DNA of 64,000 nt from Mobula hypostoma (taxonomy: Eukaryota), in assembly GCF_963921235.1 (NCBI RefSeq), contig NC_086097.1, forward strand, positions 44,270,001-44,334,000. The letters run 5' to 3'. A program made the translations under genes and the position numbers. Below, in pieces: positions 3,944 to 59,479 of this stretch. The notes under the pieces were generated by a model. It was not told the origin of the DNA, did no database searches, and saw nothing but the letters and a program-made list of their open reading frames with translations. How positions within the stretch are numbered: the stretch's first letter is position 1; each line of letters starts with the position of its first letter.

Positions 3944-4780
3944 CAGACTCAGAATCAGGTTTAATACCACCGGCATATGTTGTAAAATTTGTTAATTTAG
4001 CAGCAGCAGTTCAGTACAATACATGATAATATAGAAAAAAATGAATAAGTAGATCAATTGCAGTAAGTATATGTATTTTTAATGGCTAAATTAAAAATAG
4101 TAGTGCAAAACAGAAATAATTTTTAAAAAGTGAGGTAGTGTTCAAGGGTTCAATGTCCATTTAGGATTCAGATGGCAAAGAGGAAGAAGCTGTTCCTGAA
4201 TTGCTGAGTGCGTGCCTTCAGGCTTCTGTACCTCCTTCCTGACTAACAATAAGAAGAGGGCATGTCCTGGCTAATGGGGGTCCTTAATAATGGATGCAGT
4301 CTTTCTGAGGCACCGCTCCCTGAAGATGTCTTGGATACTACAGAGGCTAGTAAACACAGATGCTGGGGTCAAAGCAGCACTCACAACATGCTGGAGGAAC
4401 TCAGCAGGTCGGGCAGCATCAGTGGAAGGGTTCCGGCCGGAAACATTGACTGATCCTTTCCACGGATGCTGCCCGACCTGCTGAGTTCCTCCAGTGTGTT
4501 GTGAGTGTTACAGAGGCTAGTACCCATGATGGAATTGACTAATTTTTCAACTTCCTGTAGCTTCTTTCGATCCCCCTAATCCCCCTACCAGCCTGTCAGA
4601 ATGCTGTCCATGGTACATCTATAGAAGTTTGAGTGTCTTAGACAAACCAAGTCTCCTCAAACTCCTAATGAAATATAGCCACTGTCTTGCCTTCTTTATA
4701 GCTGCGTCAATACGTTGGGACCAGATTAGATCCTCAGAGATGTGGACACCCAGGAATATGAACTGCTCACTCTCACTTCT
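3944..4780 (-). mobile_element. Rex1/Babar-type LINE 3' fragment
   Basis: Minus ORF FLGVHISEDLIWSQRIDAAIKKARQWLYFIRSLRRLG; AGAATC-type tail at 3944-3958; same family as 36035-36600. Confidence 0.75.
4353..4508 (-). mobile_element. Penelope pLTR-derived fold-back mini-element with 14-bp TSD
   Basis: Exact TSD TACAGAGGCTAGTA at 4339-4352 and 4509-4522; inverted arms CTGGAGGAACTCAGCAGGTCGGGCAGCATC / GATGCTGCCCGACCTGCTGAGTTCCTCCAG. Confidence 0.85.
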
Positions 4781-4789
4781 ATAAAATGT

Positions 4790-5475
4790 GATAGTTCTGG
4801 TGAAAGTATTCGTACACAAGAGCTAACAGAGGAAGGCATTTCTGGGAGTTTAATCCCCTGATGCAGGGGAAGTGATATATTTCCAAATCGAGATGTTGCG
4901 TGGTTTCTCGGGCAATTGGGTATTTCCATATGCTTGTCCCGTTTGGTGGTAGACGTTCACTGCTGGAGTTGTGTGGTTACAGTGCAACTGCATTGAGCTG
5001 CTGGTGTAGGGAATAGATGCTTAAGGTAGTAGATGTTGCATAATTCAAATGGCTATTTGACCTCAAACACGTCAGACTTAAGTGTTCTCAGGGCTGCACT
5101 CATCCAAACAATTGGAGTGCTTTCCATCGTCGGGCTTGCAGACAGTGGAAAGGATTTGGGGGTGTCAGGGAGTAAGTTATTCGCCACAGGGCACCCAGAC
5201 TCTGATTTACTTTTGTCGCCACAATATTTATGTGGCTGAGCTAGCAGAATTTCTAAAGAATGGTGACCATCGGATATCAGGAGCAGGTGATCAGACTCTC
5301 CCTTGCTGGAGATGACCATTGTCTGAGACTTTTGTGACACAAGTAGCACCTGTTGTTTCACTGTTGTCTGCCCTGTGCTGTGTGTAGGTATGAATTGTTC
5401 TATTCATGAAGGAGTTGGGAGTGATACTGTGCAGTGATCAGCAATCAACCCCATACCTGACCTTCTGATGGATTT
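4790..5475 (-). mobile_element. Old CR1/L2-group LINE C-terminal fragment
   Basis: Minus ORF 5053-5361 (QVLLVSQKSQTMVISSKGESDHLLL...) resembles the post-RT region of CR1-group LINEs. Confidence 0.45.
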
Positions 5476-5489
5476 ATCGCCACAGCCTC

Positions 5490-7215
5490 TGTCCATGAAT
5501 CTTAGTTTCTAGGATACTTTTATTTTTCATCCTCCAATCACTCTTAGACCTTTAAAAAGCTGCTCTCACCCTAACCTATGACAGAGTAACAAAACTATTT
5601 GTGTGGATGAATTAGACAAATTTAGGTGACTTACCACCATTAATGGCATTTGCTTCAAAATTACTCCCTTCTTTGCCTTGCTAATAGTGCACAACTAGAT
5701 GGGAAATTACATAATTTTTTTAGCAACAAAGGAGTTAACTGATTTCAGTTCTTTTCACATGATTTCTATTTTAGCTGTTTAGTCACCTTATCTGTAATTG
5801 TGAACATTTATTTTTACTTCAGTGTTGATTACTCTGTTTTCGTGAGATTTGTGTTGAATAAAGGTTCCTTTACACTTTACGGTAAGAGCTGTTTCTGTTC
5901 ATTTCGAGATCAGACAATCTGTTTTTGAGATGTAGATAGTCTTATAAAGGATCCACGCCAAACTGATATCTTTCGGGATATTGATTTGGCATATGCTGGG
6001 ACAATCACTGATCAATTGACAATGGTACAGAGGTAGATTTCAGAGAATACCTTCCAATCTATTAATCTTTCAACTCTGGGCCTGTCTCATCTATCAGTGC
6101 AGGATGAGCATCATCCATATAACGGAAATTCCAGAGCAATATTGTGCGGCCAGAGATCTGGCATAGCGTGTCTTTTCCCCAAGTTTTCTTTTGAGAGAAT
6201 TCTTCAACAGTGAATCTGTTCTCAAAACTGAAATTATGAAGAAATACACTGCTAGTCCCTTCCAGCCCCATCCTTATTTTCTGTCTGGTTTCCAGCTGTA
6301 GACTTGAGAAGTTTTGTATTCTGAAGTAAGGCTCAGCACTTTCACAAGGAGTATTATGTAATGGATTCATTAAACAATACAGCACAGAAATGGCCTTTCA
6401 GCTGATCTCATCCATGCTGACTGACCAGGATACCGAACTATGCTGATCCTACTTGCTTGCATTTGACCCATGTCTCTCTCTCTACCTTTCCTATCCACGT
6501 ACCTGCCTAAATCTCCTTTAAATTGCACCTGTCTCTACCTCTTACTCAGGCAGCTTGCTCCATATTCCAACCACAAAACTTGCTCCTCAGATCCCCTTTA
6601 AATCTTTCCTCTCTTACCTTTAAATTATGCCTTCTAGTTAAAGACTCTCCTCTCCGGGAAAAAAAAGACGGTGAATATTTACCCTGTCCGTGACAATTGT
6701 AATTTTATGAAGCTCTGTAACGTCATCCATCAGCTGCTTCCACTCCAGGGAAAACAGTCCCAGTCTATCCAATATCGTCTTGTTTGATGGCAAAAACCTA
6801 CTTTCAAGTCTCTTCTACAGGGGATTAAAAAAATGTACTTTAGAAAAACATTATGGTCTGCAGACAGAGTACTTTAATGCACATGGTAAACAAAAAAAAG
6901 GGAATTCTAATGGAGATGCCCATTTTATGAAGAAAAATGCGGTAATACCATCCATAGGAAAAATTCAGGAAGAATCCAGATAAATCTCACATCCTTATTC
7001 CTGTAAGAGGGTGTATATTAGTTAAATATAGCCACTGCACGAGGAATAGAATCCTGCATTTGGACTTCCAGGATCTGTGGAGATTGCTTAAATCTGCATC
7101 GAAAGTTAAATACTTTAGTATCTAACTCAGGGTGAACGAAAAGGCCTCTGAGAAAAAAGGCAGTAAGAAAGCCCCTGCCTCTCAAAGTTTTTTTTAGTAA
7201 ATTTAGTATCAAAGT
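5490..7215 (-). pseudogene. Very old Penelope-like RT remnant, interrupted by a CR1 3' fragment (about 6375-6780)
   Basis: Collinear eroded PLE-like motifs: ILNLLKKTL..RGLFVHP (N-terminal), VFLHNFSFENRF, LLWNFRYMDD (catalytic-like), SDCPSICQINIPK (thumb-like). Confidence 0.45.
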
Positions 7216-7321
7216 AGAATATGTTGCTATATACCTTGTAAATCATTTCATTGCAAGTATTTACAGAAAAAAAATCAACAGAACTTACAAAAAAACTCAT
7301 AACTCATCAGTTAATAACTTA

Positions 7322-7486
7322 CCAGCAGTGATTGATAAGTTCGTGACCTAAGGCAGAAGGAGATGAGTTATTAAATTCAAATTTTCTGCATAATCACTCA
7401 AAGAGTTGAACTGTATGTGCATGTAATGAGAGCTGTATAACTCATCTCCTTCTACCTTAGGCCACAAACTTATCAATCACCCCTCG
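7322..7486. mobile_element. Mariner-type MITE (165 bp) with TA TSD
   Basis: About 45-bp TIRs (GTGATTGATAAGTTCGTGACCTAAGGCAGAAGGAGATGAGTTAT / ATAACTCATCTCCTTCTACCTTAGGCCACAAACTTATCAATCAC); TA on both sides. Confidence 0.8.
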
Positions 7487-7489
7487 TAT

Positions 7490-8275
7490 CTTTTAAATCA
7501 TTCCATTGTGAGTACTTACAGGAAAAAATTCAACAGAATTTATGAAAAACTATACATAAACAGGCAAAGACTGACAAACAGCCAATATGCAAAAGACAAG
7601 CTGTGCAAATTAGAAAATACTGAGAACATGAGTTGTAAAGAGTCCTCAAAAGTGAGTCTGTAGGTTGTAGAATCTGTTCAGAATAGTGGTGAAAAAAGAC
7701 GTTACGTACACTGGTTCAGGAGCCTGACGGTTTTTTAGGAGGAACAGCCAGACCAATAAGCCCACACCACCCAGTTATACCCAAGTGACCAATTAATGTA
7801 ACAACCCATTTGTCTTTGGAATGTGGGACAAACTGGAGCACTTGGGGAAAACCTGGTCACTGGGAGAGCATGCAACCTCCTTACAGACAATGGCGGAAGT
7901 GAAGCTTCTCGCTGGTGTAGCAGTAGCATTACACTAACTGCTACCTATTGTACCTTTGCAGGGCAATAACTGTTCCTGAACCTGGTGTGGGTCCTAAAGC
8001 TTCTGTACCTCCTGCTTGATGGTAGTAGTGAAAAGAGGGCATGGCCTGGATGATGTGGGTCCTTGATGATGGATGTTGCTTTCGTGTGGCAGTGCTCCAT
8101 GTAAATGTCTTCCATGGTGGGGAGGGCTTTGCCTGTGATGGACTGGGCTGTGTCCACCATTTTCTGTAGACTTTTCCATTCCTGAGCTTTGGTGTTTCCA
8201 TACCAGGCCCTGGTACAACCATTTAGGATACTCTCCACTGTGCATCTATACAAGCTTGTCAAAGTTGTTGTTGAC
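7490..8275 (-). mobile_element. Rex1/Babar LINE 3' fragment with an embedded V-SINE piece (about 7740-7940)
   Basis: ORF 7945-8277 (LYRCTVESILNGCTRAWYGN...KDPHHPGHALFSLLPSSRRYRS); V-SINE-like TGTCTTTGGAATGTGGGA block. Confidence 0.75.
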
Positions 8276-9473: not shown

Positions 9474-9611
9474 TGTAATGTATTCTGTGAGTATTCGTAG
9501 CGTCAGAGTGCGTATGATGTCAGGATGGCGAGAAGTAAAAAAAAATGGAAGTCTGGTGAATAAACATGGTTGTTCAATCTACAGCGGTGTCCGAGTCACA
9601 TCAATATTACA
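9474..9611 (+). repeat. 5' LTR
   Basis: Direct repeat of 13794-13931 with 12 substitutions in 138 bp by manual alignment; internal AATAAA. Confidence 0.95.
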
Positions 9612-9623
9612 TGGTGTCAGAAG
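9612..9623 (+). promoter_or_regulatory. Primer-binding site complementary to the tRNA-Leu 3' end
   Basis: TGGTGTCAGAAG immediately after the 5' LTR. Confidence 0.8.
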
Positions 9624-9662
9624 AATCGCAAAAAACAAAAAGGAAGAGAAGACACGTAAAAG

Positions 9663-10392
9663 ATGCCAGAGTTACAGCCACCGTCAAGTTTAAGCCTACA
9701 AGGTAATCTTGCTGAGAACTGGAAAATATGGATCCAGAAGTTTGAGCTGTTTTGCACCGCTACCGGCGTAGCTGAAAAGACGGAGAAAGTGCATGTGGCG
9801 GGAGAAGAGGCAATAAAGGTTTGCAGCACGTTTGTCTTCCAAGATGATGAGCAAGATAAAATTAAAGTGTTGAAGAAAAAGTTTCAAGATTACTGCGAAC
9901 AGAGAAAAAATCCAGCGTACATCTGACACCGGTTTTTCATGTGGGCTCAAGGACCAACGGAGACCATAGACGCCAATGTAACAGATTTGAAGAGCAAGAC
10001 AAAAAACTGTGAGTTCAGACAGCTGCATGACTCTTTAATACGTGACAGGATTGTATGCATCATACGAGATGATCAAGTGAGAGGCAGGCTATTGAGAGAG
10101 GCAGATCTTAACATTAGAAAGGGCGATTGATGTTTGTCGTGCCAGCAAGATCATGTCAAGTCAGGTTGAAGTGCTCAGTGAAGAGATTGAAGTGCACAAA
10201 ATAAAAACTGTGAAAACTGACAAGAGTAGGACAAAGCTGGCTCCACAGGATGATCAAAAGGAAGTTAACTGCAACAGATGTGGTTGTAAACATGGATACA
10301 GAAAATGTCCAGCCTTTGGTCAGACATGCAAGTTATGCTAGAAAAGAAATCACTTTGCATGGATATGCAAATCGAAGGAGGACGCAAGGAAA
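9663..10392 (+). pseudogene. gag: Gypsy gag with stops/frameshift and two tandem CCHC knuckles
   Basis: MPELQPPSSLSLQGNLAENWKIWIQKF; DSLIRDRIV; CNRCGCKHGYRKC followed by CKLC*KRNHFAWIC. Confidence 0.88.
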
Positions 10393-13300
10393 ATGCATGC
10401 TGTGGTACAGAATGAGGGCAACAGTGACATGTTCATTGGCACAGTTGAAGTGGAACAGGAGGTATGCATCAAGAATATTGACAATGCAGAGATGGAGGAT
10501 GAAGATGATTGGACTGAAGATCTGATAATAAACAGGAAGAATGTGACATTTAAGCTTGACACTGGGGTAAAGTGCAATGTAATGTCAGCAGAAACATTGA
10601 ACTCACTGGACATCAGGGGAAGACTGAGAAAATCCACCTGCAAGCTTGTTGCGTATTTCGGTCACAAGATGGCGCCACTGGGCAAAAAAGCACTCACCTG
10701 TGTGTACGAAAGTCAAAAATACAAGATCGAGTTTGAAATAGTACAGCAACATGTTCCAGCAATACTGGGCAAAGCAACATGCACAAAGCTAGGCCTGGTG
10801 AAGCGAATCTATGGTGTTGAAAAAGAAAATGACATTCTCAAAGACTTCCATGACTTGTTTTCTGGATTAGGATGTGTACCAGGGAAACACCATATCCAGA
10901 TTGATCCAACTATTGCACCAGTCGTGCACGCCCCGAGAAAGATTCCAGTAGCTCTCAGGGATCAAGTAGTGGAGGAGCTACACAGAATGGAACAGATGGG
11001 AGTCATAACAAGACAAATAGAACCGACCGACTGGGTGAATAGTATGGTGACAGTGGTCACAGAAAAAAAGACGAGGATTTGCATGGATCCACAAGATCTC
11101 AACCAAGCCATCAAAAGAGAGCACTATCTGCTGCTCACGGTTGAAGAGGTTGTCTCCCGCATGCCTAATGCAAAATACTTTTCAGTATTAGACACAAATC
11201 AAGGTTTCTGGCAGATCAAGCTGGATGAAGAAAGTTCCAATTTATGCACTTTTCAACTCGCTCATAGGGAGATATCGTTTCCTGCTTCTACCCTTTGGGA
11301 TCTCTTCTGCATCAGAGGTATTCCAGAGATCCGTGGCACAAAAGATTGAAGGCCTGGACGGGGTGGTCAACATCACTGATGGTTTGCTGATATGGGTGAC
11401 ACAATTGAGGAACATGATCAGAGACTGAGGAAGCTCCTGGAGAGAGACAACCTAAAACTGAACAAAAGTAAATGTAAGATCAGAACTACAGAGATCAAAT
11501 ACATAGGTCATGTACTCAGCGCTGATGATAAAAAGGTCAGAGTTGTGGTACAGCTACCACCACCCAAAGACAAGCAAGAACTATTGAGGTTCATGGGAAT
11601 GATACAGTATCTTGCCAAATTCATTCCCAACTTATCAGAGGTCAGCGCTCCACTCCGAAAGCTACTAGAGAGCAACACTGAATGGCATTGGGAAGATGAA
11701 CAAAATAAAAGTTTTGACACATTGAAGCAGTTGGTTACCAATACACCAGCACTCAAGTTCTATGATGTCAATAAACCGGTGACGATGTCTGTGGATGCCA
11801 GTTCGGAGGGAATAGGAGCTGTTATACTGCAGGATGAGAGGCCTGTGGCGTATGGATCACGAGCACTTACGGACTGTCAATGCCAATATGCTCAAATCGA
11901 GAAGGAATTATTCGCCATAGTTTATGGGTGTGAGAAGTTTCACCAATATGTATATGGCAAAGAAATCCAGGTTGAGAGTGATCACAAACTACTTGAGAGC
12001 ATCTTCAAAAAGCCACTCTACCAAGCTCCTATGAGGCTGCAAAGGATGCTTCTCAGGCTACAGAGGTACACTCTCACAGTCACCTATAAACCCAGGAAAA
12101 GAACTGTACATCGCTGATGCTTTGAGCCGTGCTTACCTCAAAGAGCAAAAGGAAGAGTTGCTAGGAAGAGAGCTGGAGGTCAACTGGGTTACACCTCAGC
12201 TACCATCTCTGAGGAGAAGTTGAACATGTTCAGGAAAGCGACTGCAGATGATCCTGAAATGCAAATGCTAAGAGACGTTACAGTGAATGGATGGCCAACA
12301 GAAAGAAAAGATGTTCCAAAGGAAATGCAGAAATACTGGATATCTAAAGAGGAAATCAGCTATGCATCAGGACTAATGTTCAAAACGGCAAAACTCATCG
12401 TACCAAACCAAATGAGACAGGAAATGCTCAACAGAATTCACGAGTCACACCTGGGGATAGTAAAATGTAAAGAAAGAGCAAGGGACATTCTCTATTGGCC
12501 AGGTATGTCTACTCAGATAGAAGACATTGTGTCTCAGTGTGCTGTCTGTAATGAAAACAAAAACAGCAATCCAAGAGAGCCTCTGCTTCCCCACCCACTA
12601 CCAGGAAGACCATGGGAGAAGATTGGCACAGATCTCTTTCAATACAATGGTGCAGCATATCTTCTTTGTGTGGACTACTATTCAAAATATCCGGAGATCA
12701 CCAAGTTAAGTGACACGTCCAGTCGAGGTGTCATTATCGCAATGAAGTCGACATTCACAAGACATGGGATTCCAGATATTGTCGTTAGTGACAATGGTCC
12801 ACAATATGCCAGTGGTGAGTTCAGAGAGTTCTCAGAAAGCTGGGAATTTCAACATGTTACTTCCAGTCCAGGGCATGCTCAGTCTAATGGACAAGCAGAG
12901 AGAACTGTACAAACTGACAAGAACATGCTCAAGAAGGCACAAAGCAGCAACGGTGACCCTTACATTGCTCTGCTTGAATACCGCAACACACCGACTGAGG
13001 GTGTGGGGTTCTCTCCTGAGCAGCTGTTGATGGGACGTCGTCTGAAGTCCAAACTGCTAACATCCACAACTCTACTGACTCCTGAAGGTAATGCTCAAGT
13101 ACATGACAAGCAAAGGTACAAGCAAATAAAGCAAAAGAGCTACTATGACAGACATACAAGACAGTTGCCAGATCTGCATACAGGTGAAAATGTCAGAATA
13201 CAGAGAGGAGACACTTGGCAACCAGCTGTGGTTGTGAACAGACATCAGCAACTAAGATCCTCCATAGTTCGCACGCCGGATGGAAGAGTCTACAGGAGGA

Positions 13301-13527
13301 ACAGGAAGCATCTGCTGAAGACAGGCGAGAGGGAGTTTCCACATACAGATGCACAGGACATTTCCACAGATACAGACATGGAAACAAACGACACCAAGAA
13401 TGATGCCGACCACAAAAACACAGAGGGCACTCGAGAGACTGACAGGGATGAAGGACAAGCACAGTCACAGTTGTATCACACACAGTCTGGGAGACAGGTC
13501 AAACTTCCAACTAGATACAGAGACTAG
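10393..13527 (+). pseudogene. pol: Gypsy pol (protease, RT, RNase H, integrase), frameshifted
   Basis: FKLDTGV protease; RT with catalytic xxDD mutated to ITDG; RNase H SVDASSEGIGAV and YAQIEKE; integrase HHCC plus D-D-E (GTDLF, SDNG, GQAE) in ORF 12220-13527. Confidence 0.92.
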
Positions 13528-13782
13528 ACATACATACAGTCTCACACAGTTTGAGGTAAAGCCACACATGTCATAAGTTCCAAGGTGTGAAATAGAAGGT
13601 TTATTAGTCTATGTTAGTAAAAGAAAATACACTGCTGTAAGTATTGTAAGATACAATGCAGAATACAGTACAAGAAGGTAAGATTTTTTTAGTTTATGTC
13701 ATGGTTGTTGCACTGTAAGAAGGACATACCTAGAGGCATTGTTTTGATAACTCACAGTGTTGTAAAAAGAAAACAAAATCTT

Positions 13783-13931
13783 AAGAAGGGGGATGTAATG
13801 TATTGTGTGAGTATTCGTAGCTTCAGAGTGCGTATGACTTTAGGACGGCGAGAAGTAAAAAAAATTGGAAGTCCGGTGAATAAATGTGGTTGTTCAATCT
13901 ACAGCGGTGTCTGAATCACATCAATATTACA
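13783..13931 (+). repeat. Polypurine tract (13783-13793) and 3' LTR (13794-13931)
   Basis: AAGAAGGGGGA directly before TGTAATG. Confidence 0.93.
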
Positions 13932-15056
13932 TCTGCAACACATTAGTTTTCAATCTCATGAGTGTACAAGACAACTGAGACAGTAAACACTAACATTAAG
14001 ATTCAGCAAAATGAAAAACAATGTTTCAGCACATCTACTTGTAAGACTTTCATGACGTACTGTATCTAAAAATAGTCCATTTTCACTGAAAACAGAATGG
14101 ATAGCTTCTTGATTGACTTCTACATGGGCATACAGTATCCATCTTATTCTTAGAATTGCATCATACATATGTAACAGAACATTTCACTCTGATTATGGAA
14201 AAACTCCTCCATTATTTCTTTATATATATTTTTTCCTTTTCAGTTGTTTATGAACCAAAGGAGGGGCTCCCTGAATTAGAGAATCATGTCCTATCATTGT
14301 CTCAGATTCTGTGTCATTTATCAACCATTAAATTTGCTTTTAAATTATTTTAAAATGAATTCTCATGTTAGCTTTCTCATGCACTCAAAATCTCATTTAA
14401 CGGTAAGAATAATTTAAATGTAGTGTTGTATCAATGATGATAATTTCATTTTCCAATGACCTACTTATATTTTTAATTAAAGTGGTTCGCATATCGTTCC
14501 CATAAACTTTACAGTGTACGTGCATACAAGCATAAGCTGAATGTATCGGTATGGAAATCATGCTAACATGCCTGGATTGTCAATTCAGAAATACATTTTT
14601 CCAGCGATAACTCAGTTAGAATCCTGCTGATCCTGATTCACTCACCAGTCTCAGCATGAATTACGTTTCAGTTGAACTATCACAGACTGCATACTAGAGC
14701 GATTCCATTGTCTCAGTGGAAAATGGCTTTAGAATTGCTGTGTTGGAGATGATGTGCATAGAGAGCAGCGAAGTGACTTTGCCAGATGCAGCAAGGTCAG
14801 TGCATATCAATACAGCCGTGCTCCCTGGACTTTCTGCAACAGTATCAGAACTAAGAGTGAAAGTGGACTGGAAATGAAACAAGGAACTGGCAATTCTTGA
14901 AGCATCTTTGCTGTAATTGCTTGCAGCTGGCCCAAGCCCGGCAAAGATCTGTTCACTTACAAGGAACTTTGTATTATGTTGTAGATTAATGTAGTAAAAT
15001 AGGATTAGAATTGTATTTCCAGAGTTACCTTGTCTTTGCATTTCAACATTGCCTGG

Positions 15057-15232
15057 AGCAATGCACACAAAATGCTGGAGGAACTCAGCAGGCCAGGCAG
15101 CGTCTATGGATGTTGGCCCAAAACATCATCTGTATACTCTTTCCCATAGATGCTACCTGGCCTGCTGAGTTCCTCCAGTGTTTTGTGTGTTGCTTTGGAT
15201 TTCCAGCATCTACTGATTTTCTCGTGGTGGTG
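15057..15232 (+). mobile_element. Penelope pLTR-derived fold-back mini-element (older copy)
   Basis: Inverted arms around 15107-15143; degenerate 12-bp TSD AACATTGCCTGG / AAAATTGCCAGG. Confidence 0.78.
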
Positions 15233-16184
15233 AAAATTGCCAGGTATCAGGTTTTTCTCTGAGTGGCAACAACTTTCTTTTGAACACATAGGCAAAATGT
15301 ATACTGTACATTTGTTTTCAACCTCATCCTGTAATGAAATGACTGGTAAGAGGTTGCTGATAGAGATAGTTGTCTGTAGGACTAGACAAGGAAAATACTC
15401 TAATCTGAGAAAAAGTGCCAAGGAGGATTAATCACCCAAGTTAAATTTATGCCCATGCGAAGTCACTCCCTGTAACGGAAGTTATTTTAGATTTCGTTCT
15501 GTGCTCTTTTCTGATTCAGCTAAAGGCATTTTCACATGTATTCACAAACTCTGCTCATGTGTGGAAGGCTTCAAGAAATCACTTTATTAGAGTTATACAA
15601 AACATACAGTACAGAAAGAATGATTACTGAAGTAGGAGTAAAGAAAAACAAAAGAATACTTATCTTCTACTTAATGTGCTGATCTGCACAATACCAAAGG
15701 GGAACCACAGACCTCTTACACAACCTTTTCTCTCTCTCTCTCCCCAATCGCTTGACATCCTTCACTAGCACTAGTTGTGATCTAGCCTAAGAGATCATTC
15801 CCACTTGCATGAAGAAATTGCCCCCTTGATACCCTTTCAGGCCCTCTTTTGTCTCCTGCAATCTTTGGGTGTGACATACAGAAATCAAAGATAGAGACAG
15901 GTGGTGCACAGGGGGAAAACATTGGTCAATAAGGGGCAAACAGGCCATCACCACATTCTAAGCCGACACCATTTCGTCTTTCGAACTTCCATTTTATTTT
16001 GGCATGCACCAAGGAGGAATCACAGTTAACTCCTTCCTTACAATCACAATCAGAAATCTGTCATATTATGTGATAAAGTAGGAAAGGGCAACACACACAA
16101 AAATATTAGTATAACTTTTTATTTGCCCAATAGAATGTCTATGCCTCAAATGCTTCAGATTAAACTTTGGGCTGGTTGTAACAA

Positions 16185-20438: not shown

Positions 20439-20439
20439 T

Positions 20440-40220: not shown

Positions 40221-40260
40221 AAGCAACTCAAAAGCTGAAAACAAACATTTCCTATTTTAA

Positions 40261-45351: not shown

Positions 45352-48300
45352 TGTTATTGTTTTATAACACCAAAACATAAAAAATAATGCAGGAAAAAGA
45401 TGGAGCCAGGAAATAACTCCTGTACATTCATTTTAGCTTTAAGTGAAGCGCACGCGTATCACATAGTGGCATAATGATGTATGCCATTTACGTACTTTTA
45501 CGTATGAGCAACAATGTAAACAACAAAGAATGCTTAATCAAACAGTACATTTACAATTATTACTCAAATATTAAATACACAGCACTACTCCCAACTCAAT
45601 ATAAAATGCATTTGAACTATATACACTGTATACTATATAATACAACTACTATATACATATCTACAGCATTGTAAATTTTAAATTGTTCCATTCAGGGCTA
45701 AAGATTTAAACGCTGTGGAGGATTTCTTACTCTTGTGGGATAACGTCTTTCCTGACAAGGGTGATCACTCTGCTTGGCAGGTGAGACTTGTGGGAGTTGT
45801 GTCTGTGAAACAATCTCAGGTTCTGAGGCCTCCTCTGTGGTGGTTGTAGGAGTTAACCCTGGGACTGCAAGAAGTGGTTCTGACAGCTCTGGCCATGCTT
45901 TTTCCAGACATGTTGGTAACCTAAACAGTGCATGGCAAGCTGGTAGATCTGCTGATCTATCTCAGGCAAAGCTTCAAGCCAACACTTTAATTTTGACCAT
46001 GCCTAGATGCATGTAGCTCCTCCAACACTTTAACTCTCAGCTTGGATGGTATAGCAGCTCTCAATCCCCACATTAGGGAATGTCCATCAAAGGCAAGTTC
46101 ATCCTGACGCTGGTAAAACGGGCAGAACTGCTGCACATTCCACCCATTTTTGGTGGTCATGTAGACCTGAGATAGTGTGGGGTTTTTTTTGCTTTCCCTT
46201 TGGATCAACTCAACCGTAATAGAGAGAATTTGATTTATGTTAGGAAGAACATGTCCTGAAGAATGTCCTCCTTTGTAAATTTTTCAGCTACTTGCTTTCC
46301 CAAGGGCAAACGGGACCATCCATCAGCATTTCCACGATTAGCTGTACTCTTGAATTCAATCTTGTAGTTGTGTTCTCCAAGAAACAGAGCCCTTCTCTGC
46401 ATTCATGCTACGGCTGTTAGTGAAACACCCTTCTGTGATTCAAAAATTGACACAAGAGATTAATGCTCAGTAATGAGGGTAAACTCTCTCCCATACAAGT
46501 GCTGGTTGAAACCATACCCGAGGCCTCTCTGTGGGTAATTTTTCTCTGCAGCGGTAAGGGAATGTGATGCAAAAACTATGTGGTGTTCACGTCCATCACT
46601 CTTAACATGTGAAATGACTACACCTATAACATAAGGCGAGGTGTCACAGGCAAGCTTCACTGGATGATGTGGATCATACTGTGTGAGCATAGTGTCTGAC
46701 ATCACCATTTCATTTACCATTTTAAAAGCCACCTCACACTGCCTTGGCTATTGCCATTTCTTCCTGATCTCTAGTAATGAGTTCAAAGAGTAGAGCACAG
46801 TAGCCAGGTGTGAGAGGAGCCTATTACAGTAATTGACCGCAACCCTTTGGCCTTGGGCATCCACACCTGCTTGAATTTTCTCAGCACTCTTGTGTAATTC
46901 TTGTGCATTAATGGTGTGACCACAATAAATGGCTTAAAGAATTCACACTCATTGCATCGTGCTCTGAGCTCATAATTTTCTAATGTTTTAACACCATCAT
47001 GAGATTTTGGAGATGTTCCTTGTCAACCTTACTGGTAACGATGATGTCATCCAGGTAACGCTGAGTGCCTAGAGAGCCATATAGCGAGAAAGCACTTTGT
47101 GTGTGTTAATGAAAACATTTTGGACTTCTTCCACCTCCATCTGTAGATAGGCCTCAGCTAAGTCCACTTCGCTGAAGTGTTTTCCTCCAGAAAGGTTTGT
47201 GAAAATATCCTCTATCCTGAACAGAGGGGTAATGGTTGACTTTCAGTACTGGGTTGATGGTAATCTTAAAATCACCACAGATACTGACAGGCCCGTTCTT
47301 ACCTACTGTGACCACTGATGTTGCCCATGGGTTTCACTCTACCTTGAAAAGAATTCCTTCAGCCTCCATGCGATATGGTTCACTGGCTACTTTATCACAT
47401 GTGGTTTATTTTTAAACTCAACCATTTCTCACTACAACTTAATTTTAGCTCAAATGTCTCACTGCACTTCAACAGGTAGGTAGTTATCTCGGATTTGTTT
47501 AAAACTTCACCATCACCACTGTTATGTTTTGTGACTCAAAAACATTAAAACTAATTGCAAGAAAAAGATGGAGCCAAGAAATAATTCTGGTACGTTCATT
47601 TTTACTTTAAGCAAGGTGTGCACATATCATGTGATGGGTAATGATGTATGCCATTTATGTACTTTTACATATAACTCGCAATGCATTATGTAAACAACAT
47701 AGAATGCCTAATTAAACAACATATTTAAAATAAACACAAGGAATTCAGCAGATGCTGAAAATCCAAAGTAACATATACAAATCAGAGGAACTCAGCATGT
47801 CTGAGAGCATCTATGGAAATGAATAAACAGTCAACATTTCCGATCAAGGACCTTCTTCAGGACTGGAAAAGAAGGGAGGAGATATCAGAATAAACAGATG
47901 GAAGAGGGGATGGAGGATAGCTAGAAGGTGATAGGTGAAGCAAGGTGGGTGGGAAAGGTAAAAGGCTGGAGAAGAAGGAATCTGATAGGAGAGGAGAGTG
48001 GGCCATGGAAGAAAAAGAAGGAAGTGGGGTAACAGTGGGAGGTGAGACGAGGTGAGACGCCAGAGTGGGGAATAGAAGAAGAGAGGGGGATGGAAACATT
48101 TTTATGCCAGAAGGAAAAATCAATATTCATGCCATCAGGTTGGAGGCTACCCAGATGGAATATATTGCTCCTGCACCCCAATAGTGGCCTCATCATGGCA
48201 GACGAGGTAGCCATGGACCAACAATTTGGAATGGAAATGGGGATCAGAACTAAAATGTTGGGAAGTTCTGCTTTCGGTCGATGGAGCAGAGGTGCTTGAC

Positions 48301-48557
48301 GGTGCCCAATTTACGACGGGTCTCGCCAACGTAGAGGAGGCTGCATCGGGAGCACTGGATACAATAGATGACTCCAGCAGATCTGCAGGTGAAGTGTTGC
48401 CTCATGTGGAAGCACTGTTTGAACCCTGAATGGAGGTGAAAGGGGAGGTGTGGTACTTTGGCTGCTTGCAGGGATAATAGCTGGGAAGGAGATTAGTGGG
48501 GACGGATGTGTGGACAAATAAAATATGTTTACAATTGTACTCAAATATAAATACACA
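45352..48557 (-). mobile_element. Internally deleted, decayed Gypsy (Mag-type) element with two LTRs
   Basis: LTRs at 45352-45584 and 47520-48557 (the latter split by a Penelope insertion); flanks GGGTC / AGGTC; remnants [12 protein letters not shown] (RT), VKLACDTSPYVIGVVISH (RNase H), KVLEELHA (integrase). Confidence 0.82.
47732..48519 (-). mobile_element. Penelope 3' fragment (GIY-YIG remnant and pLTR) inserted in the Gypsy 5' LTR
   Basis: FHLGSLQPDGMNIDFS; degenerate hammerhead CTGAAGAAG...GAAATGTTGACT; degenerate duplication ATATTTAAAAT / ATGTTTACAAT. Confidence 0.82.
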
Positions 48558-49519: not shown

Positions 49520-51483
49520 TGCTCATTTTATCTTCTGAGCATTTGTTGCCATCATCCTGGTAACGGTGTACATTCCGTCTTAGGCCAATGTTAGGCAGGC
49601 ACCGGAGGAACTGAGCAACATGATCAGCAGGCACGAAACAGCGCACCTGATGCCTGCCTATCACTGAGGGAGATTTCAAACAGGCCAGCCTGAAGAAATC
49701 TCTGAACAACTACCACTAATATATCACCTGTGGAACCAGGGGAACCAACATACTTGACCACTGTTGTACCACCATCAAGAACGCGCCATCCCACGCCCAC
49801 ACTTCGGAACATCCAATCATCTGGCTGTGCTTCTACTCCCAGCGTCTAGGCAGAGACTAAGGACTACAGCATCAGTGGTGAGGACCAAGAAGATATAGTC
49901 AAGGGAGGGGGAGGATCGCTCAGAGGACTGCTTTGAGCCATAGACTGGACAATATTCACGGATTCATCTTTGAGTCTGAATGAATATGCCACAGTTGTCA
50001 CTGACTTCATCAAGACCTGTGTGGGTGAGTGCCTAGAGAACATACCAGACGTACCCAAACCAAAAGCCATGGATGAACCAGGAGACTCATAGTCTGCTGA
50101 GGGCTAAATCTGTGGCATTAAGACCAGTGATCCTGAAATATACAAGAATTCCAGGTAAGGCCTACAAAAGGCTGTTATAAAGCAGAAAAAAATTTCCGAT
50201 TGAAGTTAGAGACAGAATCAGATGCACGTCAGCTCTGGCAGGGTTTGCAGGCCATTACTGCCTACAAACTGAAACCTAACATCATGAATCACTGTGATGT
50301 TTCATTCCCAGATCAGCTCAATGTCTTTTATGCATGCTTGGAAAGGGAGAATGAAACTACACCTGTGAAAATCTCTGCAGCATCTGGTGACCTTGTGATC
50401 TCTGTCTCAAAGGCTGACGTCAGAATGAATCCCTGCAAAGCATCGGACCCTGATGGTGTACCTGGAGGGTCTCTGAAAACCTGTGCCAGCCAACTGATGG
50501 GAGTGTTCAAGGACATCTTCAATCTCTCACTGCTGCAAACGGCAGTTCCCACCTGCTTCAAAAGGATGACGATCATACCAGTGCCCAAGAAGAGCAGGTG
50601 AGCTGCTTCAATGACTGTTGCCCAGTGGCACTCATATCTACTGTGACAAAGTGCTTTGAGAAGTTGGTAATGGTTGGAATCAACTCCTGCCTAAGCAAGG
50701 ACCTGGACATGATGCAGTTGTCCTATCACTACAATAGGTCTATAGTGGATGCATTCTCACTCTCCACTCAGCCTTGAATCTCCCAGACAATAATAATACC
50801 TGCATCAAGCTGCCCTTTATTGACTACCACTCAGCGTTCAACACAATCATACCCTCTCTTCTAATCAACAAGCTCCTAAACCTGGGCCTCTGTACCTCCC
50901 TCTGCAATTGGTTCCTTAACTTCCTCACCAGGAGACCACAGTCTGTGAAGATCGGAAATAACACCTCCTCCTCACTGACAATCGACAAGGGTACACCTCA
51001 AGGATGTGTGCTTAGCCCACTGGTTTACTAGGCACAGCTTAAATACCATCTATAAATTTGCCAATGACACAACTATTGTTGGCAGAATTTCAGATGGTGT
51101 TGGGGAGGCATACAGGAGTGAGATAGATCAGCTGGTCGAGTGGGGTCACAGCAACAACTTTGCACTCAACGGCAGTAAGACCAAGGAGTTGATTGTGGAC
51201 TTCAAGAAGAGAAAGTCAAGAGAACACACACGTCCTCTTTGAGGGATCAGAAATGGAAAGGGTGAGCAGTTTCAAGTTGCTGCATGACAATATCTGAGGA
51301 TCTGTCCTGGGCCAACATATTGATGCAATTACAAAGAAGGCACGACAGTGACTACATTTCATTAGGAGTTTGAGGAGAACTGATATGTTACCAAAGACAC
51401 TTGCAAATTTTTACAGATGCATTGTTGTGAGCAATCTAACTGGTTGCATCACTATGTGGTACGGAAGGGCCACTGCACAGGAC
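49520..51483 (+). mobile_element. Rex1/Babar LINE, decayed endonuclease and RT
   Basis: [43 protein letters not shown] and KFANDTTIVG motifs. Confidence 0.88.
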
Positions 51484-52048
51484 TTTATAAGGCATTGGTG
51501 AGACTACATTTAGAGTATTGTGAGCAGCTTTGGGCCCCGTGTCTAAGGAAGGATGTGGTGGTGGAATTGGAGAGGGTCCAAAGGTTTATGAGAATGACTC
51601 TGGACATGAGAAGGTTAATAAATAAGGAGCATTTCCTGGCTCTGGGCCTGTACTTGCTGCTGTTTAGAAGCATGAGAGGGGAATCGCATTGAAGCCTACT
51701 GAATATTGAATGGCCTAGAGTGAACATGGAGAGGATGTTTCCATTAGTGGGAGAGTCTAGGACCAGAGGCACAGCCTCAGAATACAAAAATGTTGCTTTA
51801 AAATGGAGATGATGAAGAATCTCTTTGCCCAGATGGCGCAGAATCAGTGGAATTAATTGCCACAGATAGCTGTGGAGGCCAAGTCATTGGGTATATTTAA
51901 GGCAGGGGTTGATAGGTAAAGATGTTAAAAGTTACAGGGTAAAAGCAGGAGAGTGGAGTTGAGGGAGAAAAGTAAATCAGCTATCAGAATGGTGGTGCAG
52001 ATTCAATGGGCTAAATTACCTAATTCTGCTCTTATAGCTTGGTCTAAT
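51484..52048 (+). mobile_element. CR1 3' fragment abutting Rex1
   Basis: LYKALVRLHLEYCEQLWAPCLRKD; CR1 3' UTR. Confidence 0.8.
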
Positions 52049-55010
52049 CTCTTAAAACACCATCAGTCTCTCCTGCTCCCAATAAAATATCCCAAGTTTA
52101 TCCACATTATCCTTATACTGCATACCCTCAAATCCAGGCAGCATTCTGGTAAACACCTCTGTACCCTCTTCAAAGCCTCAGCAACCTTTCTAGAATGGAG
52201 TAACCAGAACTGAATGCAATATTCGAGTTGTGGCTTAACTAGAATTTTATAAAGCTGTAACATAACTTCCTGACTCTTGAACTTAATTTCTTATCTGATG
52301 AAAGCAAGCATGTTATATGCCTTCCTTACCAACCTATCAACCTGTGTAACCACTTTCAGGGAGCTATGGACTTGGACCCCCAGATCCCTCTGGACATCAA
52401 CACAGTTAAGGGTCGTCCTATTCACAAGGTATTTTCCTTTTACATTTGACCTCCCAAAGTGCAACACTTCACATTTTACCCAGTTAAACTCCATCTGACA
52501 TTTCTATGTCCATTTCTGCAACCGATCTATATTCTATGTACTATATTCTTTGGTAGTTTTCTACACTCTCCACAACACCACCAATTTTTGTATCATCTGC
52601 AAGCTTCCTAACCCACCTATTTACATTTTTCATCCAGGTCATTTATATATCTCACAAACAGCAAAGGTCCCAGTACAGATCCCTCTGGTAAACCACTTGT
52701 TACAAGGCTCCAGTCGGAATAAGTCTCATCTTGACCCAGGTAAGTATCCTCTGTGGATAAGCCAATTCTGAATCCAAATGGCCAAGTCACCATGGATCCC
52801 ATGTAACTTAAATCTTCTGGATGAGCCTCCCATGAAGGACCTTGTCAAACACTGTACTAAAGATCCATGCAGATAACATCTACAGCCCTATGTATCAATC
52901 ACCTCTGTCACTTCCTCAAAAAACTCGATCAAGACAGCAAGACATGTCTGGCCCTGCACGAAGTGATGCTGACTATCCCTAATTAGGCCATAGTTTTACA
53001 ACTGCACATAAATCCAATTCTGAATAATTCCTATCACTAACATGAGGCTCATTGGTCTATAGTACCAGGACTAATCCTAATCTTGTTTCTTGAATAATGG
53101 AACAACATTAGCTATTTGCCAGTCCTTCAAGACCTCATCTGTGGACAGAAAGATACTGGTAAAGGCCCCAGCAATTTCTCACCTTTCCCTATAATCCAGG
53201 CTATATCCCATCAGACCCAGAGGACTTAACCACCTTAATGCTCTTTAAGAGACCAAACATTACCTCTTTTATCTCCACATACTCTAGCAAATTAGCAAAC
53301 TGCACAATGATCTCCCTATCCTCCACATCCTTCTCTTTGGTAAATGCTGATGCAAAGTATTTAGGTCCTCTCCCACATCCTCCACCTCAAAGCAAATGTT
53401 CCTTTCTTATTTCTGATTGGTTCTACCTACTCCCTGGTTATCCATTTGATGTATGATTAGAATGCCTTGTCATTCTCTTTAATCCTACCTGCCAAATACT
53501 TTCATGGCTCCTCCTGGCTATCCTAATTCCCTTCTTGAGTTCATTTCTGTCTTCTTTACTATTCTCAAGGTCTCTGTTTGATTTTAACTTCCTAAGTCTT
53601 GCATACATTTCTTTTATCTTCTTGACTAAATTCACCACTTCATTTGACATCCAGAGTTCCCCTCCCTTACCTTACCTTCCCCTGCCATGCTCGTCCTTCC
53701 GCTGTACTGGGTTGTACTTGTGTAGTTGGACTTTGTACACCCTCCACGGGTCAGATATGGACGACCCAAAAACTGCTATGCCCAATTAAGTTCCCTGCCT
53801 AAAACTCTCATTTGAAGCCTTGCTTCAAGTTAATACTCTCTTGTTAAGTCTATACCTATCTATAGCTATCTTAAAACATAAGCAGTTGTGATCGCTGTTT
53901 CCTAATTGTTCTTCCATGGAAAGGTCAGTCACCTGGCCCAGTTCATTACTAAACAGCAGGTTACGTATGGCTAATCCTGTTGATAGACTATCTGCATATT
54001 GATTTAAAGAACCCTTATAGATGCACCGAACAAATTCTTTCCAATCTAAACCTCTTGCACTAAATAGGTCCCAGTCCATATTAGAAAGGTTGAAGTCACA
54101 TTATTACAACAACACTGTTGTATTTACACCTTTCTCTAATCTACCTGAATGCCTATGCCTCAATATCCTAGTGGCTATTGGATCATCATCATCATGATTA
54201 TGTGCCATATCGTATGTCGTGGCCGATCCTGATCTTCTGACCATGATTGTTTTTGGCAAATTGTTCTACAAGATGTGGTTTGCCATTGTCTTCTTCTGGG
54301 CAGTGTCTTCACAAGACGGGTGACCCTAGCCATTATCAATACTCTTCGGAGATTGTCTGCCTGGGTGTCAGGGTCTCATAACTAGGACTTGTGATATGAA
54401 CCAGCCGCTCATACGATGATCCACCACCAGCTCCCAAGGCTTCATGTGACCCTGACTGGGGAGCTAAGCAGCTGCTGCACCTTGCCCAAAGGTGATCCGT
54501 AGGCTAGTGCGGGGAGGGAGTGCATTACGCCTCCTTTGTAGAGACATATCTCCACCCCACCACTTGGGGTTATTGGGTAGTCTGTAGTATTATCCCATCA
54601 GAGTGATTACACCATTCTTATTTTTGGATTCTATCCATATAGACTCAGTGGATGACCCTTCATTATGTCCTCTCTGAGTGCAGCTGTGATATTGACCCTG
54701 ATTACTAGGGCAACTTCACCCCTCCTTCCTTCTTTCTCTTAAAACATCGAAATCCTGGAACGTTAAGCATCGATTCCTGTCCCTCTCTCTGTTATGACCA
54801 CAACTTCATAGTTCCATGCACTGTCCTATGCTCTAAGTTCATCATCCTTACCCATAATACTCCTAGCATGAAAATACGCAAACTTCAGCATATCCAGCCT
54901 ATTGTGTCTATTATTTGGCTCCTGCCTGTTCTTATTGGTCGTGACATCTACCTTCCTCTCATCCCCTCTCTGACCAAGAGCTCTGGTTCCCATCTGATTA
55001 ACAGGGATGG
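52049..55010 (-). mobile_element. Long decayed CR1 LINE
   Basis: Minus ORFs LKFAYFHARSIMGKDDELRA, EQLGNSDHN, SGLPEGSVLGPLLF, KCEVLHFGRSN and LVKPQLEYCIQFW in collinear order. Confidence 0.85.
54182..54565 (-). mobile_element. RTE-related short element with (GAT)n tail inserted in CR1
   Basis: (ATC)n at 54182-54194; GTGGTTTGCCATTGTCTTCTTC block resembling RTE/BovB-type UTR; flanks GTGGCTATTGG / GGGGTTATTGG. Confidence 0.6.
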
Positions 55011-58273: not shown

Positions 58274-58534
58274 GTGCAGCAGATTCAAAAGATCCCTAGT
58301 CAGATGTACCATGTGGGAAAACCCCCTCTCGATACAGACGTAGACAGCACTAAGAGTGAAGGCACCGAAGAAAGGATCTGCACAGATGACACAGTTCAGC
58401 AGGACAACCACGCTTATGTGAACAAGGAAAATTCTAGAAGAACTAGGCCACTGATTCCCATGCCAGTGATGTCAACTCCAAGTAAAAGTTTCTTGAAGTG
58501 CAGATCGCCATCCTTATCCAGAGATATTAATATG
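58274..58534 (+). CDS. Candidate host coding exon (product unknown; 5' boundary uncertain)
   Basis: Non-repetitive open frame (QQIQKIPSQMYHVGKPPLDTDVDSTKSEGTEE...RSPSLSRDINM) ending at consensus donor ATG|GTAAGT. Confidence 0.4.
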
Positions 58535-59069
58535 GTAAGTTTAAAATTTTGGTTTTAATTTAAATTTCAGTATCTTGCATTGCTCTATTAAGTATTGCTG
58601 TGCTGATAATGTCTTGAAACAGATCCAGTGAGCCTGGCAGTTTTAATGTCTAACAGTTATTTCTATAGGCACAAATACTTGTTTCAAGGTAATAGGCCAA
58701 TTTTAGTATCTAAGTTCAAGTTCTTTGGCATCCATAGCACCACAACTTTGTTGAAGAACTGATGGGATTGTAACCATAATTGCAACTTCCCCTACTCAGT
58801 CCCTTAGGAACAAGCAACATGCTGGGTCTGATTAATGAGGCCTGACCAAGCTGGTAAACAGCATGCAGTACCAGAGCTAAAATTGACCAAAGGCACAAAA
58901 TGGACATTGATAGGATGGCTAACAGGCAAAGAACAAATACTTATTACCCAATCCTTCCCACTTAGCTTACTACTGCCTAGATATTGGATGAATTCCAATG
59001 AAAGTAAATATGTTAGTTTGAAATTATCATTAAATATGTTGTATTTAAAGACAGAGAATTTTACATGCC

Positions 59070-59193
59070 GAAGGGTTCAGCCCAAAGCGTTGACTGTACT
59101 TCTTTCCATAGATGCTGCCTGGCCTGCTGAGTTCCTCCAGTATTTTGCGTGTTGCTTGGATTTCCAGCATCTGCAGATTTTCTCTTGTTTTGG
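59070..59193 (+). mobile_element. Single-arm Penelope pLTR mini-insertion
   Basis: GAAGGGTTCAGCCCAAAGCGTTGACTG...GATGCTGCCTGGCCTGCTGAGTTCCTCCAG; degenerate TSD GAATTTTACATGCC / GAATTTTACCATGTCC. Confidence 0.75.
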
Positions 59194-59479
59194 GAATTTT
59201 ACCATGTCCCAGTTGCATCCCATGATAGCTCAATTTTCCTGCTTTCCTACCAATTCAAAATAACATTTTCAATTTTATTTGCACCCTGCTGTATTTGGAA
59301 GTATAAATTTCTAGTGACACATGATCAATGGCCCTAGGCTTACTTTGCAAATTAATATTGCTTTATTTGATTCTATTGCTGCTGTAGAATCAGTAAGTAA
59401 ACTGTGTTGCTGTAAACTTTTTAACTTGTATGCATACATAAAGCTGTTGACTGGAATTGGTTTGTTATTGCCATATGCA

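Follow-up and report, generated by a model that had tools for sequence, protein, structure and literature searches.

Penelope-like elements (PLEs) that encode an endonuclease (EN+ PLEs) typically leave insertions in which a terminal repeat, the pLTR, is met by an inverted, 5'-truncated partner, a tail of 30-40 bp is present on one side only and the target is duplicated (PMC3846280, PMC8557442). In the passages of these papers that deal with Pen2a_Av of Adineta vaga and with the general EN+ scheme, the truncated copy lies head to head with the pLTR, the duplication is variable in length and other PLE copies may serve as targets. In vitro work on a Poseidon-clade element of Anolis carolinensis, which has no linker zinc finger, shows that the PLE protein nicks and extends both strands and that reverse transcription (RT) begins at two neighbouring internal positions, which delimit the tail and lie ~100-140 nt behind the hammerhead; the template is uncleaved RNA, with product length tracking the RNA 5' end (PMC11167929). 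The minimal hammerheads (min-HHR) of metazoan PLEs, reported in fish Xena, Poseidon and Neptune among others, have a type I core, an extra base before helix II, a short helix I and a palindromic helix III box; they are mostly single dispersed motifs from truncated PLEs, and some form pairs 100-700 bp apart on opposite strands (PMC4209133). Animal non-LTR retrozymes are non-coding, pLTR-related carriers of type I hammerheads that are described as tandem repeats arranged head to tail, in which every unit has its motif and which give cleavage-defined monomers and circles; dispersed monomers exist as well (PMC7229834; bioRxiv 10.64898/2026.07.22.740005). Published precedents thus exist for hammerheads in PLEs, for inverted truncated partners and for tails on one side; how integration is completed and where the RNA starts are both treated as open questions in the relevant passages of PMC11167929 and PMC8557442.

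The window, by which we mean the whole 64-kb stretch of DNA analysed here, contains a ~130-nt unit that is the pLTR of a GIY-YIG PLE with a Neptune/Nematis-type linker. Three endonuclease fragments terminate in the unit and eight short (solo) insertions consist of the unit alone, at the positions where an earlier note on this DNA had placed them; blastn recovered these copies, and a profile search gave 14 matches at E<0.001, compared with none in the reversed window. The solo inserts are 130-225 bp long and make up ~1.9% of the window. As in the EN+ PLE scheme, a pLTR with a hammerhead, an inverted 5'-truncated partner, a one-sided tail, a target duplication and insertion into another PLE copy are all found. 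Unlike Pen2a_Av as described, both arms here are shorter than one pLTR unit and their 5' ends gather at the hammerhead edge, and the duplications measure 11-18 bp rather than the 8-10 bp given for A. vaga (PMC3846280). The two-armed micro-insertions and the restriction of the tail to one arm have no counterpart in the in vitro account of Poseidon, in those portions that treat its products (PMC11167929).

The best preserved endonuclease fragment, EN1 (32488-33584, plus strand), is a 5'-truncated PLE of subfamily alpha that consists of a linker zinc-finger-like motif, the GIY-YIG endonuclease, a pyrimidine-rich 3' region and a pLTR without a tail. Positions 32488-33263 match a ray protein at 81-93% in the best tblastn pieces, and 32779-32907 matches the Pfam GIY-YIG family at E=3.9e-4 with 21.1 bits, just under the curated cut-off of 22.6; the translation of this stretch has two cysteines between GIY and YIG. 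A C-X4-C-X2-C linker motif in P0002 (32576-32776) has the CX2-5CxxC form that precedes the endonuclease in Neptune/Nematis, by the definitions of these groups and of EN+ PLEs in PMC8557442. The second fragment, EN2 (47732-48444, minus strand), belongs to subfamily beta; it is likewise 5'-truncated, matches a ray protein at 61-76% over 48068-48444 (tblastn) and ends in a tailed pLTR with a decayed motif (47864-47732). An old fragment, G (42600-43190, plus strand), runs from the endonuclease C-terminus into a decayed pLTR (43120-43190); only that C-terminus (~42600-42672) is present, which tblastn missed and which aligned at the DNA level with a score reached by 0 of 500 shuffles. Near it, at ~42553-42598, lies a weak antisense tail-like piece (shuffles as good: 5 of 500 for one query, 68 of 500 for a second). 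Every PLE copy in the window breaks off ahead of the RT. The RT is carried by P0003, a ray protein of 93% identity, and by 63 longer relatives, most of them with RT and some with GIY-YIG Pfam labels; the closest long relatives reach at most 52%, and no full-length member of the window family was among them. Inverted arms were sought on the 5' side of EN1 and EN2 and not found, and for a putative ORF start within the unit, considered by eye, the reading frames differ between the subfamilies.

Four of the six well-preserved solo insertions are clear hairpins (4353, 15057, 35563, 40261), and the other two (32910, 59070) are single-armed, which qualifies the earlier statement that most solos are hairpins. 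Hairpin A has a minus-strand arm at 4353-4429 (unit +43 to ~+121, with a shortened tail and no hammerhead) and a plus-strand arm at 4425-4508 (+10 to +96, tailless, beginning inside the catalytic core); the arms overlap by ~5 nt, and an exact 14-bp duplication flanks them (4339-4352 / 4509-4522). Hairpin B combines a tailless minus-strand arm at 15057-15109 (+47 to +100) with a plus-strand arm at 15108-15232 (+13 to the tail end) that keeps a decayed partial hammerhead; the overlap is 2 nt, and the 12-bp duplication (15045-15056 / 15233-15244) is degenerate, with 2 mismatches. Insertion C (32910-33038, minus strand) is a single unit from +1/+2 to the tail end that lies antisense within the endonuclease coding region of EN1 as a separate insertion, between exact 18-bp duplications (32892-32909 / 33038-33055), and is identical to the EN1 pLTR at 85 of 87 nt (blastn). 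Hairpin D consists of a tailless minus-strand arm at 35563-35642 (+2 to +81, core decayed) and a plus-strand arm at 35644-35761 (+6 to the tail end, ~14 nt of the motif deleted). In hairpin E, a tailless minus-strand arm (40261-40359, +1 to +99) abuts a plus-strand arm (40360-40483, +18 to the tail end) between exact 14-bp duplications (40247-40260 / 40484-40497). Insertion F (59065-59193, plus strand) is a single unit from ~+6 to the tail end with a decayed motif and an 11-bp duplication with 1 mismatch (59054-59064 / 59192-59202). Two copies are decayed: H (37610-37711, minus strand), a single unit with a tail remnant that may reach a few bases upstream of +1, and I, at 38747-38835, with a minus-strand arm (38747-38802) and a plus-strand tail-only arm (~38803-38835; tail match in 1 of 500 shuffles).

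The three exact duplications reported before (4339/4509, 32892/33038 and 40247/40484) were recovered as such. The generalization that most solos have duplications of 12-18 bp is borne out in part: three of eight are exact (14-18 bp) and two of eight degenerate, one of them 11 bp long, but none was found at 35563, 37610-37711 or 38747. Anchored matches like these, exact or degenerate, arose in 0, 6 and 4 of 3000 random pairs. None convincing was seen for EN1, EN2 or G either. Target duplications and a PLE tail support the earlier proposal that PLE machinery inserted the short copies.

The hammerhead of the pLTR, judged by its letters, is of the min-HHR type already described, with the core boxes, helices I and II, an extra base at 9.1 and a palindromic 15.2-16.2; it differs from the published description, as far as that goes, in a helix II of 4 bp that opens with G-U rather than G-C in EN1, C and E. 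The claim that the unit holds a hammerhead is right for a minimal type I motif in the pLTR, but the motif is complete in three copies only: 33498-33533 (plus) in EN1, where one change breaks the helix III palindrome, 33038-33003 (minus) in C, and 40359-40324 (minus) in the left arm of E, where it is letter-perfect. A descriptor search matched these three, all of one subfamily, compared with a mean of 0.03 in 100 shuffles, whereas the core heptamer by itself is not enriched in the window (55 seen, 44.7 expected). From the hammerhead consensus, EN1 would be cleaved between 33529 and 33530. The palindromic box is perfect in one of the three complete motifs (E); in the contigs of run X1, the majority letter at 33526 (7.8 of 9.9 million summed depth) restores the palindrome of EN1. 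For a helix III duplex of 4 bp, the predicted free energy is -1.7 kcal/mol with the E box and +2.6 kcal/mol with that of EN1/C.

A scan with Rfam hammerhead families, which the earlier note had proposed, returned none at E<=1 in the window and none at E<=10 in 33470-33570, a result that may reflect the absence of a minimal-variant model from Rfam; in the window scan, just hairpin-shaped miRNA and similar models appeared, below gathering scores, and the narrower scan gave nothing relevant. No covariation measure exceeded shuffles over 8 pairs in 16 rows, the rows being decayed copies. Both arms of the 4353 and 15057 hairpins lack the start of the catalytic core, so most solo copies carry no whole ribozyme motif; two of the eight keep it complete. 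We propose that the hammerhead is a passenger in the short copies and treat cleavage itself as putative, because cleavage would take away core that the copies keep and because the motif is predicted to be buried in a hairpin transcript (stem pair probabilities of 0.0 inside hairpin E).

The arms follow a regular pattern. In all four clear hairpins the tail is on exactly one arm; short 3' limits fall at +96, +99 and +100 (+81 in the decayed D), and long limits at +121 to beyond +129. Neither arm is nested in the other in A, D and E, the offset in D being only 4 nt, and in B the long arm spans the whole of the short one. No two hairpins have the same junction, which means that none was copied from another. 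The ten 5' ends are at +1, +1, +2, +6, +6, +10, +13, +18, +43 and +47. They adjoin either a duplication or the partner arm, so that nothing further upstream is concealed. Mapped against the cleavage site, as had been suggested, none of the ten falls at that site. Eight lie within +1 to +18, which are the first 18 nt of the hammerhead; there are no ends upstream of it. Nominal P values for this clustering are 3.5e-5 and 0.004; both overstate the case, given that the bin was picked post hoc and the arms of one insertion are not independent. The clustering suggests that the RNA has a discrete 5' end. By eye, C, D and E show no additional base at +1 of the kind that a cap would leave.

Random extreme 5' truncation, one of the origins offered earlier, is not the right account, given the pile-up of 5' ends at the upstream edge of the motif. 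Hammerhead cleavage was rejected as the origin of these ends, as the copies retain sequence upstream of the cleavage site.

The solo copies fall in two subfamilies, each with an endonuclease-bearing member: C and E group with EN1 (support 100/99), and the other solos are of the EN2 type. A tree constrained to place EN1 and EN2 on one side and every solo on the other is rejected (p-AU 0.00048). The two arms of A are sister rows (98/94), as are those of E (97/95), with 3 and 8 private changes in common, respectively; the 3 in A are within the cross-locus range of 0-4, and the arms of B and of D have no private changes in common. For E, gene conversion between the arms would be another explanation.

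On balance, we are inclined to regard the short copies as dead insertions of the pLTR of an endonuclease-bearing PLE, made by two-strand priming and the joining of short cDNAs, with the RNA 5' end at the start of the motif. The endonuclease would cut the target on both strands, at positions 11-18 bp from each other, and reverse transcription on the element's own RNA would be primed from each of the free ends. If the two primers begin at two PLE start sites ~30-40 nt apart, one arm would acquire the tail and the other would lack it; head-to-head joining of this pair of short cDNAs would give a hairpin, and loss of one of them a single-armed copy. That the arms are so short is probably due to priming on the 5' pLTR copy in the transcript, where the enzyme would reach the end of its template within 100-140 nt, the RNA 5' end being placed at the first bases of the hammerhead motif. 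Nicking and extension of both strands and the two internal start sites are borrowed by analogy from another PLE; for this family, we infer two-strand priming, one shared RNA template and +1 as the transcript start. That Poseidon system is of another clade and, in the results cited, shows no strand preference for the start site, which counts against the proposal (PMC11167929), as does the Penelope of D. virilis, in which the transcript start lies ~120 nt ahead of the helix I edge and is separated from it by an intron (PMC4209133). A bolder version, in which the units are 'strong-stop'-like products of the PLE cycle, is possible but doubtful: the transcript would start at the first base of helix I, both strands would be primed on one RNA at two sites a tail length apart, and 5'-copy priming would yield a ribozyme-bearing micro-insertion of fixed length.

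Alternatively, two-strand priming may have taken place while the 5' boundary marks where RT halted on an RNA that continues further upstream; the obstacle could be the hammerhead fold, the pyrimidine tract before it or a splice-acceptor complex, and the copies would be plain 5' truncations with a hot spot. The scatter of ends over +1 to +18, rather than at one base, would fit, as would the predicted folding of the first 36 nt of an RNA beginning at +1 into a hairpin; a polymerase blocked by that hairpin should, however, halt at its 3' base (~+36), and none of the ten ends lies in +31 to +35. EN1, EN2 and H have a pyrimidine tract plus AG before +3, and EN1 a branch-point-like heptamer, as judged against the splice consensus; +1/+2 also reads as a splice acceptor. 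In D. virilis, too, the intron is reported to end at the 5' side of helix I (PMC4209133), but C and E retain the AG and carry no first exon, and hence are not spliced second exons. On this evidence we consider an RT stop rather unlikely.

True fold-back is less probable still, and as the origin suggested in the earlier note it is probably wrong. In this model, a version of which has been outlined for PLEs (PMC3846280), a cDNA or antisense template self-primes at a short palindrome and so becomes a hairpin, one end of which is cut back by the endonuclease during integration. It would account for the close kinship of the arms in A and in E, for the short junction overlaps of A and B and for the nesting in B. 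Against it, in A and E, and marginally in D, the arm that reaches further 5' is without the tail borne by the other, so that target-primed snap-back would need an extra trimming step; moreover, the E junction has no exact overlap, and I, and perhaps G, have tail-only second arms.

An independent, retrozyme- or SINE-like ~130-nt element, transcribed from solos, processed through its own hammerhead and moved in trans by the PLE protein, is very improbable and in this window largely refuted. In its favour, solos outnumber endonuclease-bearing copies 8 to 3, their 5' ends are non-random, X1 summed contig depth, which is not copy number, is 9.6-14.7 million over the unit versus 1.5-7.6 million over the endonuclease end, and pLTR-derived retrozymes are reported from vertebrates including one chondrichthyan (bioRxiv 10.64898/2026.07.22.740005). 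Against it, the solos form no subfamily apart from endonuclease-bearing copies, C is nearly identical to the EN1 pLTR, hairpin junctions are unique, 6 of 8 solos are without a complete motif, and, in contrast to retrozymes, the copies are single or head to head, with no head-to-tail array in the window, and start upstream of the cleavage site.

The value of these very short, recent insertions is that they record junctions cleanly, although our statements on junctions refer to one 64-kb window and six well-preserved insertions. Should the 5' pile-up and the one-tail rule prove general across the genome, they would provide a test of PLE integration after two-strand nicking and of the RNA start site. 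If the 'strong-stop' version is true, the transcript start and a strict one-tail rule would be recorded in vivo throughout the genome, on a very large scale, and that record would settle the second-strand step of PLE integration, which is still undefined.

Pattern scans for further copies gave 0 and 0 in metagenome contigs and 0 in prokaryote genomes; a single viral-contig match, 20 nt in unrelated coding-like sequence, was judged to be chance. Of two raw-read runs piled up on 33056-33640, X21 gave 9 low-complexity reads and X22 none. The contig runs gave 146,908 contigs (X1) and 10,518 contigs (X12) on the same stretch, so the unit family is very abundant; solo and full copies are not told apart in these pile-ups, and X12, which is RNA by guess only, is not counted as evidence of expression. 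A few go-back joints occurred among the X1 contigs, each as one contig-level row. Among the upstream loose ends listed, the largest is at 33498, with 1348 contigs in X1 and 199 in X12, but its consensus is the pyrimidine tract of the other subfamily (agreement 0.40-0.53). If transcribed, the hairpins would form duplexes of 50-85 bp, a possible source of edited or small RNA.

A profile search for the unit, the ~130-nt terminal repeat (pLTR) of a GIY-YIG Penelope-like element (PLE), recovered 14 pieces at E<0.001 in the window and none in the reversed window, in agreement with the places at which the earlier note had located them. These pieces make up 11 insertions, three of which continue upstream into GIY-YIG endonuclease sequence (EN1, 32488-33584; G, about 42600-43190; EN2, 48444-47732) and eight of which, the solo insertions, do not (starting at A 4353, B 15057, C 32910, D 35563, H 37610, I 38747, E 40261 and F 59065). 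The exact target duplications claimed for A, C and E were confirmed at 14, 18 and 14 bp, those of B and F are degenerate and adjoin the element ends, and none was found for D, H and I; the chance level of such matches was 0, 6 and 4 per 3000 random pairs. The observation is real and its coordinates are correct. Insertion C (duplication span 32892-33055) lies antisense within the endonuclease coding region of EN1, a near-identical family member, and its target duplication repeats six EN1 codons.

Numbering the unit from the first base of hammerhead helix I (+1), the ten arm 5' ends of the six well-preserved insertions (H and I being too decayed to count) fall at +1, +1, +2, +6, +6, +10, +13, +18, +43 and +47 (nominal P of 3.5e-5 and 0.004, values that overstate the case, with a bin picked post hoc and arms that are paired), and the furthest 5' end of each insertion at +1, +1, +2, +6, +10 and +13. 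None of the ten lies upstream of +1 or at the cleavage site (+33), and no upstream sequence can be hidden, because the ends adjoin either the duplication or the other arm. A template that ended near +1 would explain this most simply. A PLE transcript is described as beginning in the upstream pLTR (PMC6765202), and the reverse transcriptase (RT) start sites are therefore present twice in it. Priming at the 5' copy of these sites would yield a cDNA of 100-140 nt.

In EN1, EN2 and H, the sequence surrounding +1 resembles an initiator whose A falls at +1, but it also reads as a splice acceptor following a pyrimidine tract. Positions 33470-33499 of EN1 hold a branch-point-like heptamer, a pyrimidine tract and an AG immediately 5' of the hammerhead, and a tract and AG precede the hammerhead in EN2 and H too. 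By analogy with the Penelope of D. virilis, this stretch could be the end of an intron; there, the intron is reported to end at helix I and the transcript to start about 120 nt upstream (PMC4209133), an arrangement that calls for caution in taking +1 as the start of the RNA. In public data aligned to 33056-33640, the biggest of the upstream loose ends listed falls at 33498, where the consensus is the tract of another subfamily (agreement 0.40 in contig run X1 and 0.53 in contig run X12), and raw-read runs aligned to the same interval gave nothing useful.

Four solo insertions are hairpins of two arms, head to head in every case: A (+43..+121 and +10..+96), B (+47..+100 and +13..tail), D (+2..+81 and +6..tail) and E (+1..+99 and +18..tail). 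The tail, a known PLE extension at the 3' end of the unit, is confined to one arm in 4/4 hairpins; insertion I adds a tail-only second arm, as does G, weakly. Free choice per arm would yield this outcome 1 time in 16, which makes it a hint and no proof.

A published alternative is that hairpins arise by self-priming on an antisense template (PMC3846280). The fold-back origin put forward in the earlier note fits B, whose arms are nested as simple snap-back allows. It does not fit A, D and E, in which the arm reaching further 5' is the tailless one, so that neither arm can have been copied from its partner; these non-nested arms argue for two primed cDNAs and against simple snap-back. Such a scheme resembles L1 twin priming. 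A PLE protein is reported to nick and extend both strands on uncleaved RNA, and the tail is set by the two neighbouring internal sites at which it starts (PMC11167929). The two arms of A are sisters in the tree, as are those of E, and they share 3 and 8 private changes, respectively; the arms of B and of D share 0, and 25 cross-locus pairs range from 0 to 4. One shared template for both arms is thus plausible for E, given sister arms with 8 shared changes against 0-4 across loci, and unproven elsewhere.

For the putative hammerhead ribozyme, a minimal type I descriptor, drawn up after the copies had been inspected, found three sites (33498+, 33038- and 40359-; mean 0.03 in 100 shuffles), which amount to a single observation because all belong to one subfamily. 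The motif has all three traits listed for minimal hammerheads in PMC4209133, namely an extra base before helix II, a short helix I and a palindromic helix III box. Only E keeps an unbroken palindrome, but the palindromic letter is the majority among X1 contigs. Against the assignment, an Rfam scan gave no hammerhead match, covariation in the helices was not above shuffles, and the whole motif survives in just two of the 8 solo insertions, C and E. Fold prediction gave a helix I/II pair probability of 0.0 in the predicted transcript of hairpin E, ~0.5 when the RNA begins at +1, and 0.0 once 28 upstream EN1 bases are added. In Xenopus, 1/9 predicted dimers is reported to have cleaved (bioRxiv 10.64898/2026.07.22.740005).

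The proposal that the solo copies form an independent mini-element class is not supported, since they group with the EN1 or EN2 type and form no head-to-tail arrays in the window. Two subfamilies are apparent in the alignment, and in a tree of 12 rows (decayed G, H and I omitted) EN1 groups with C and E (100/99), leaving A, B, D, F and EN2 outside; a tree placing EN1 and EN2 on one side and all solos on the other is rejected (p-AU 0.00048). Between C and the EN1 pLTR, 2/87 bases differ. Every hairpin junction is different, and therefore no hairpin was copied from another. Head-to-tail arrays, which the units in the window lack, are described as what defines non-LTR retrozymes (PMC7229834; bioRxiv 10.64898/2026.07.22.740005), and the latter source reports retrozyme families in one chondrichthyan. 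Separately, X1 contigs contain go-back joints (e.g., 33571 to 33498 and 33534 to 33499), each a single contig-level row, which suggests that, at other places in a related genome, the unit occurs as short head-to-tail repeats beginning at +1/+2.

The hammerhead motif, dispersed single copies and opposite-strand pairs are already in print (PMC4209133), as are the inverted truncated partner and one-sided tail (PMC8557442; PMC3846280). A literature search, with most subscription papers outside its scope, found nothing on the EN1 family in rays or on a clustering of 5' ends at the edge of the hammerhead, and the remaining value lies in this pile-up and the one-tail rule.

The endonuclease piece of EN1 at 33039-33200 is 93% identical to an annotated Mobula hypostoma protein and 78-81% identical to four Hypanus sabinus proteins (6 matches among 18 candidates), which marks the genome as ray-like. 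The EN1 linker encodes a C-X4-C-X2-C motif, and its GIY-YIG domain carries both inner cysteines; such a linker motif is described as marking Neptune and Nematis and as missing from Penelope/Poseidon (PMC8557442). Longer RT-bearing relatives reach at most 52% identity (63 matches among 3112 candidates), and thus no full-length member of the EN1 family was seen among those candidates. The annotated ray gene models P0003-P0007 are composed largely of PLE RT-endonuclease sequence, one of them (P0005) bearing the name of a kinase-domain protein isoform, and are probably annotation artefacts or exonised copies.

Retroelement remnants crowd the window (64 kb, 41.5% G+C, zero N). An LTR retrotransposon remnant at 9474-13932, Ty3/gypsy-like by the look of its translation, carries reading frames for protease-RT, RNase H and integrase at 10342-13527 and is flanked by direct repeats (9474-9612 / 13794-13932, 91% over 139 nt). 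Several LINE RT fragments with a common 3' end, presumably of CR1/L2 type, lie at 17738-26257, 38945-40153 and 51300-52050. Two further inverted repeats bear no relation to the PLE unit: a MITE-like pair at 37996-38100 / 38395-38499 (105 nt, 95% complementary, 294 nt apart) and an imperfect one at 7311-7390 / 7418-7497 (80 nt, 76%).
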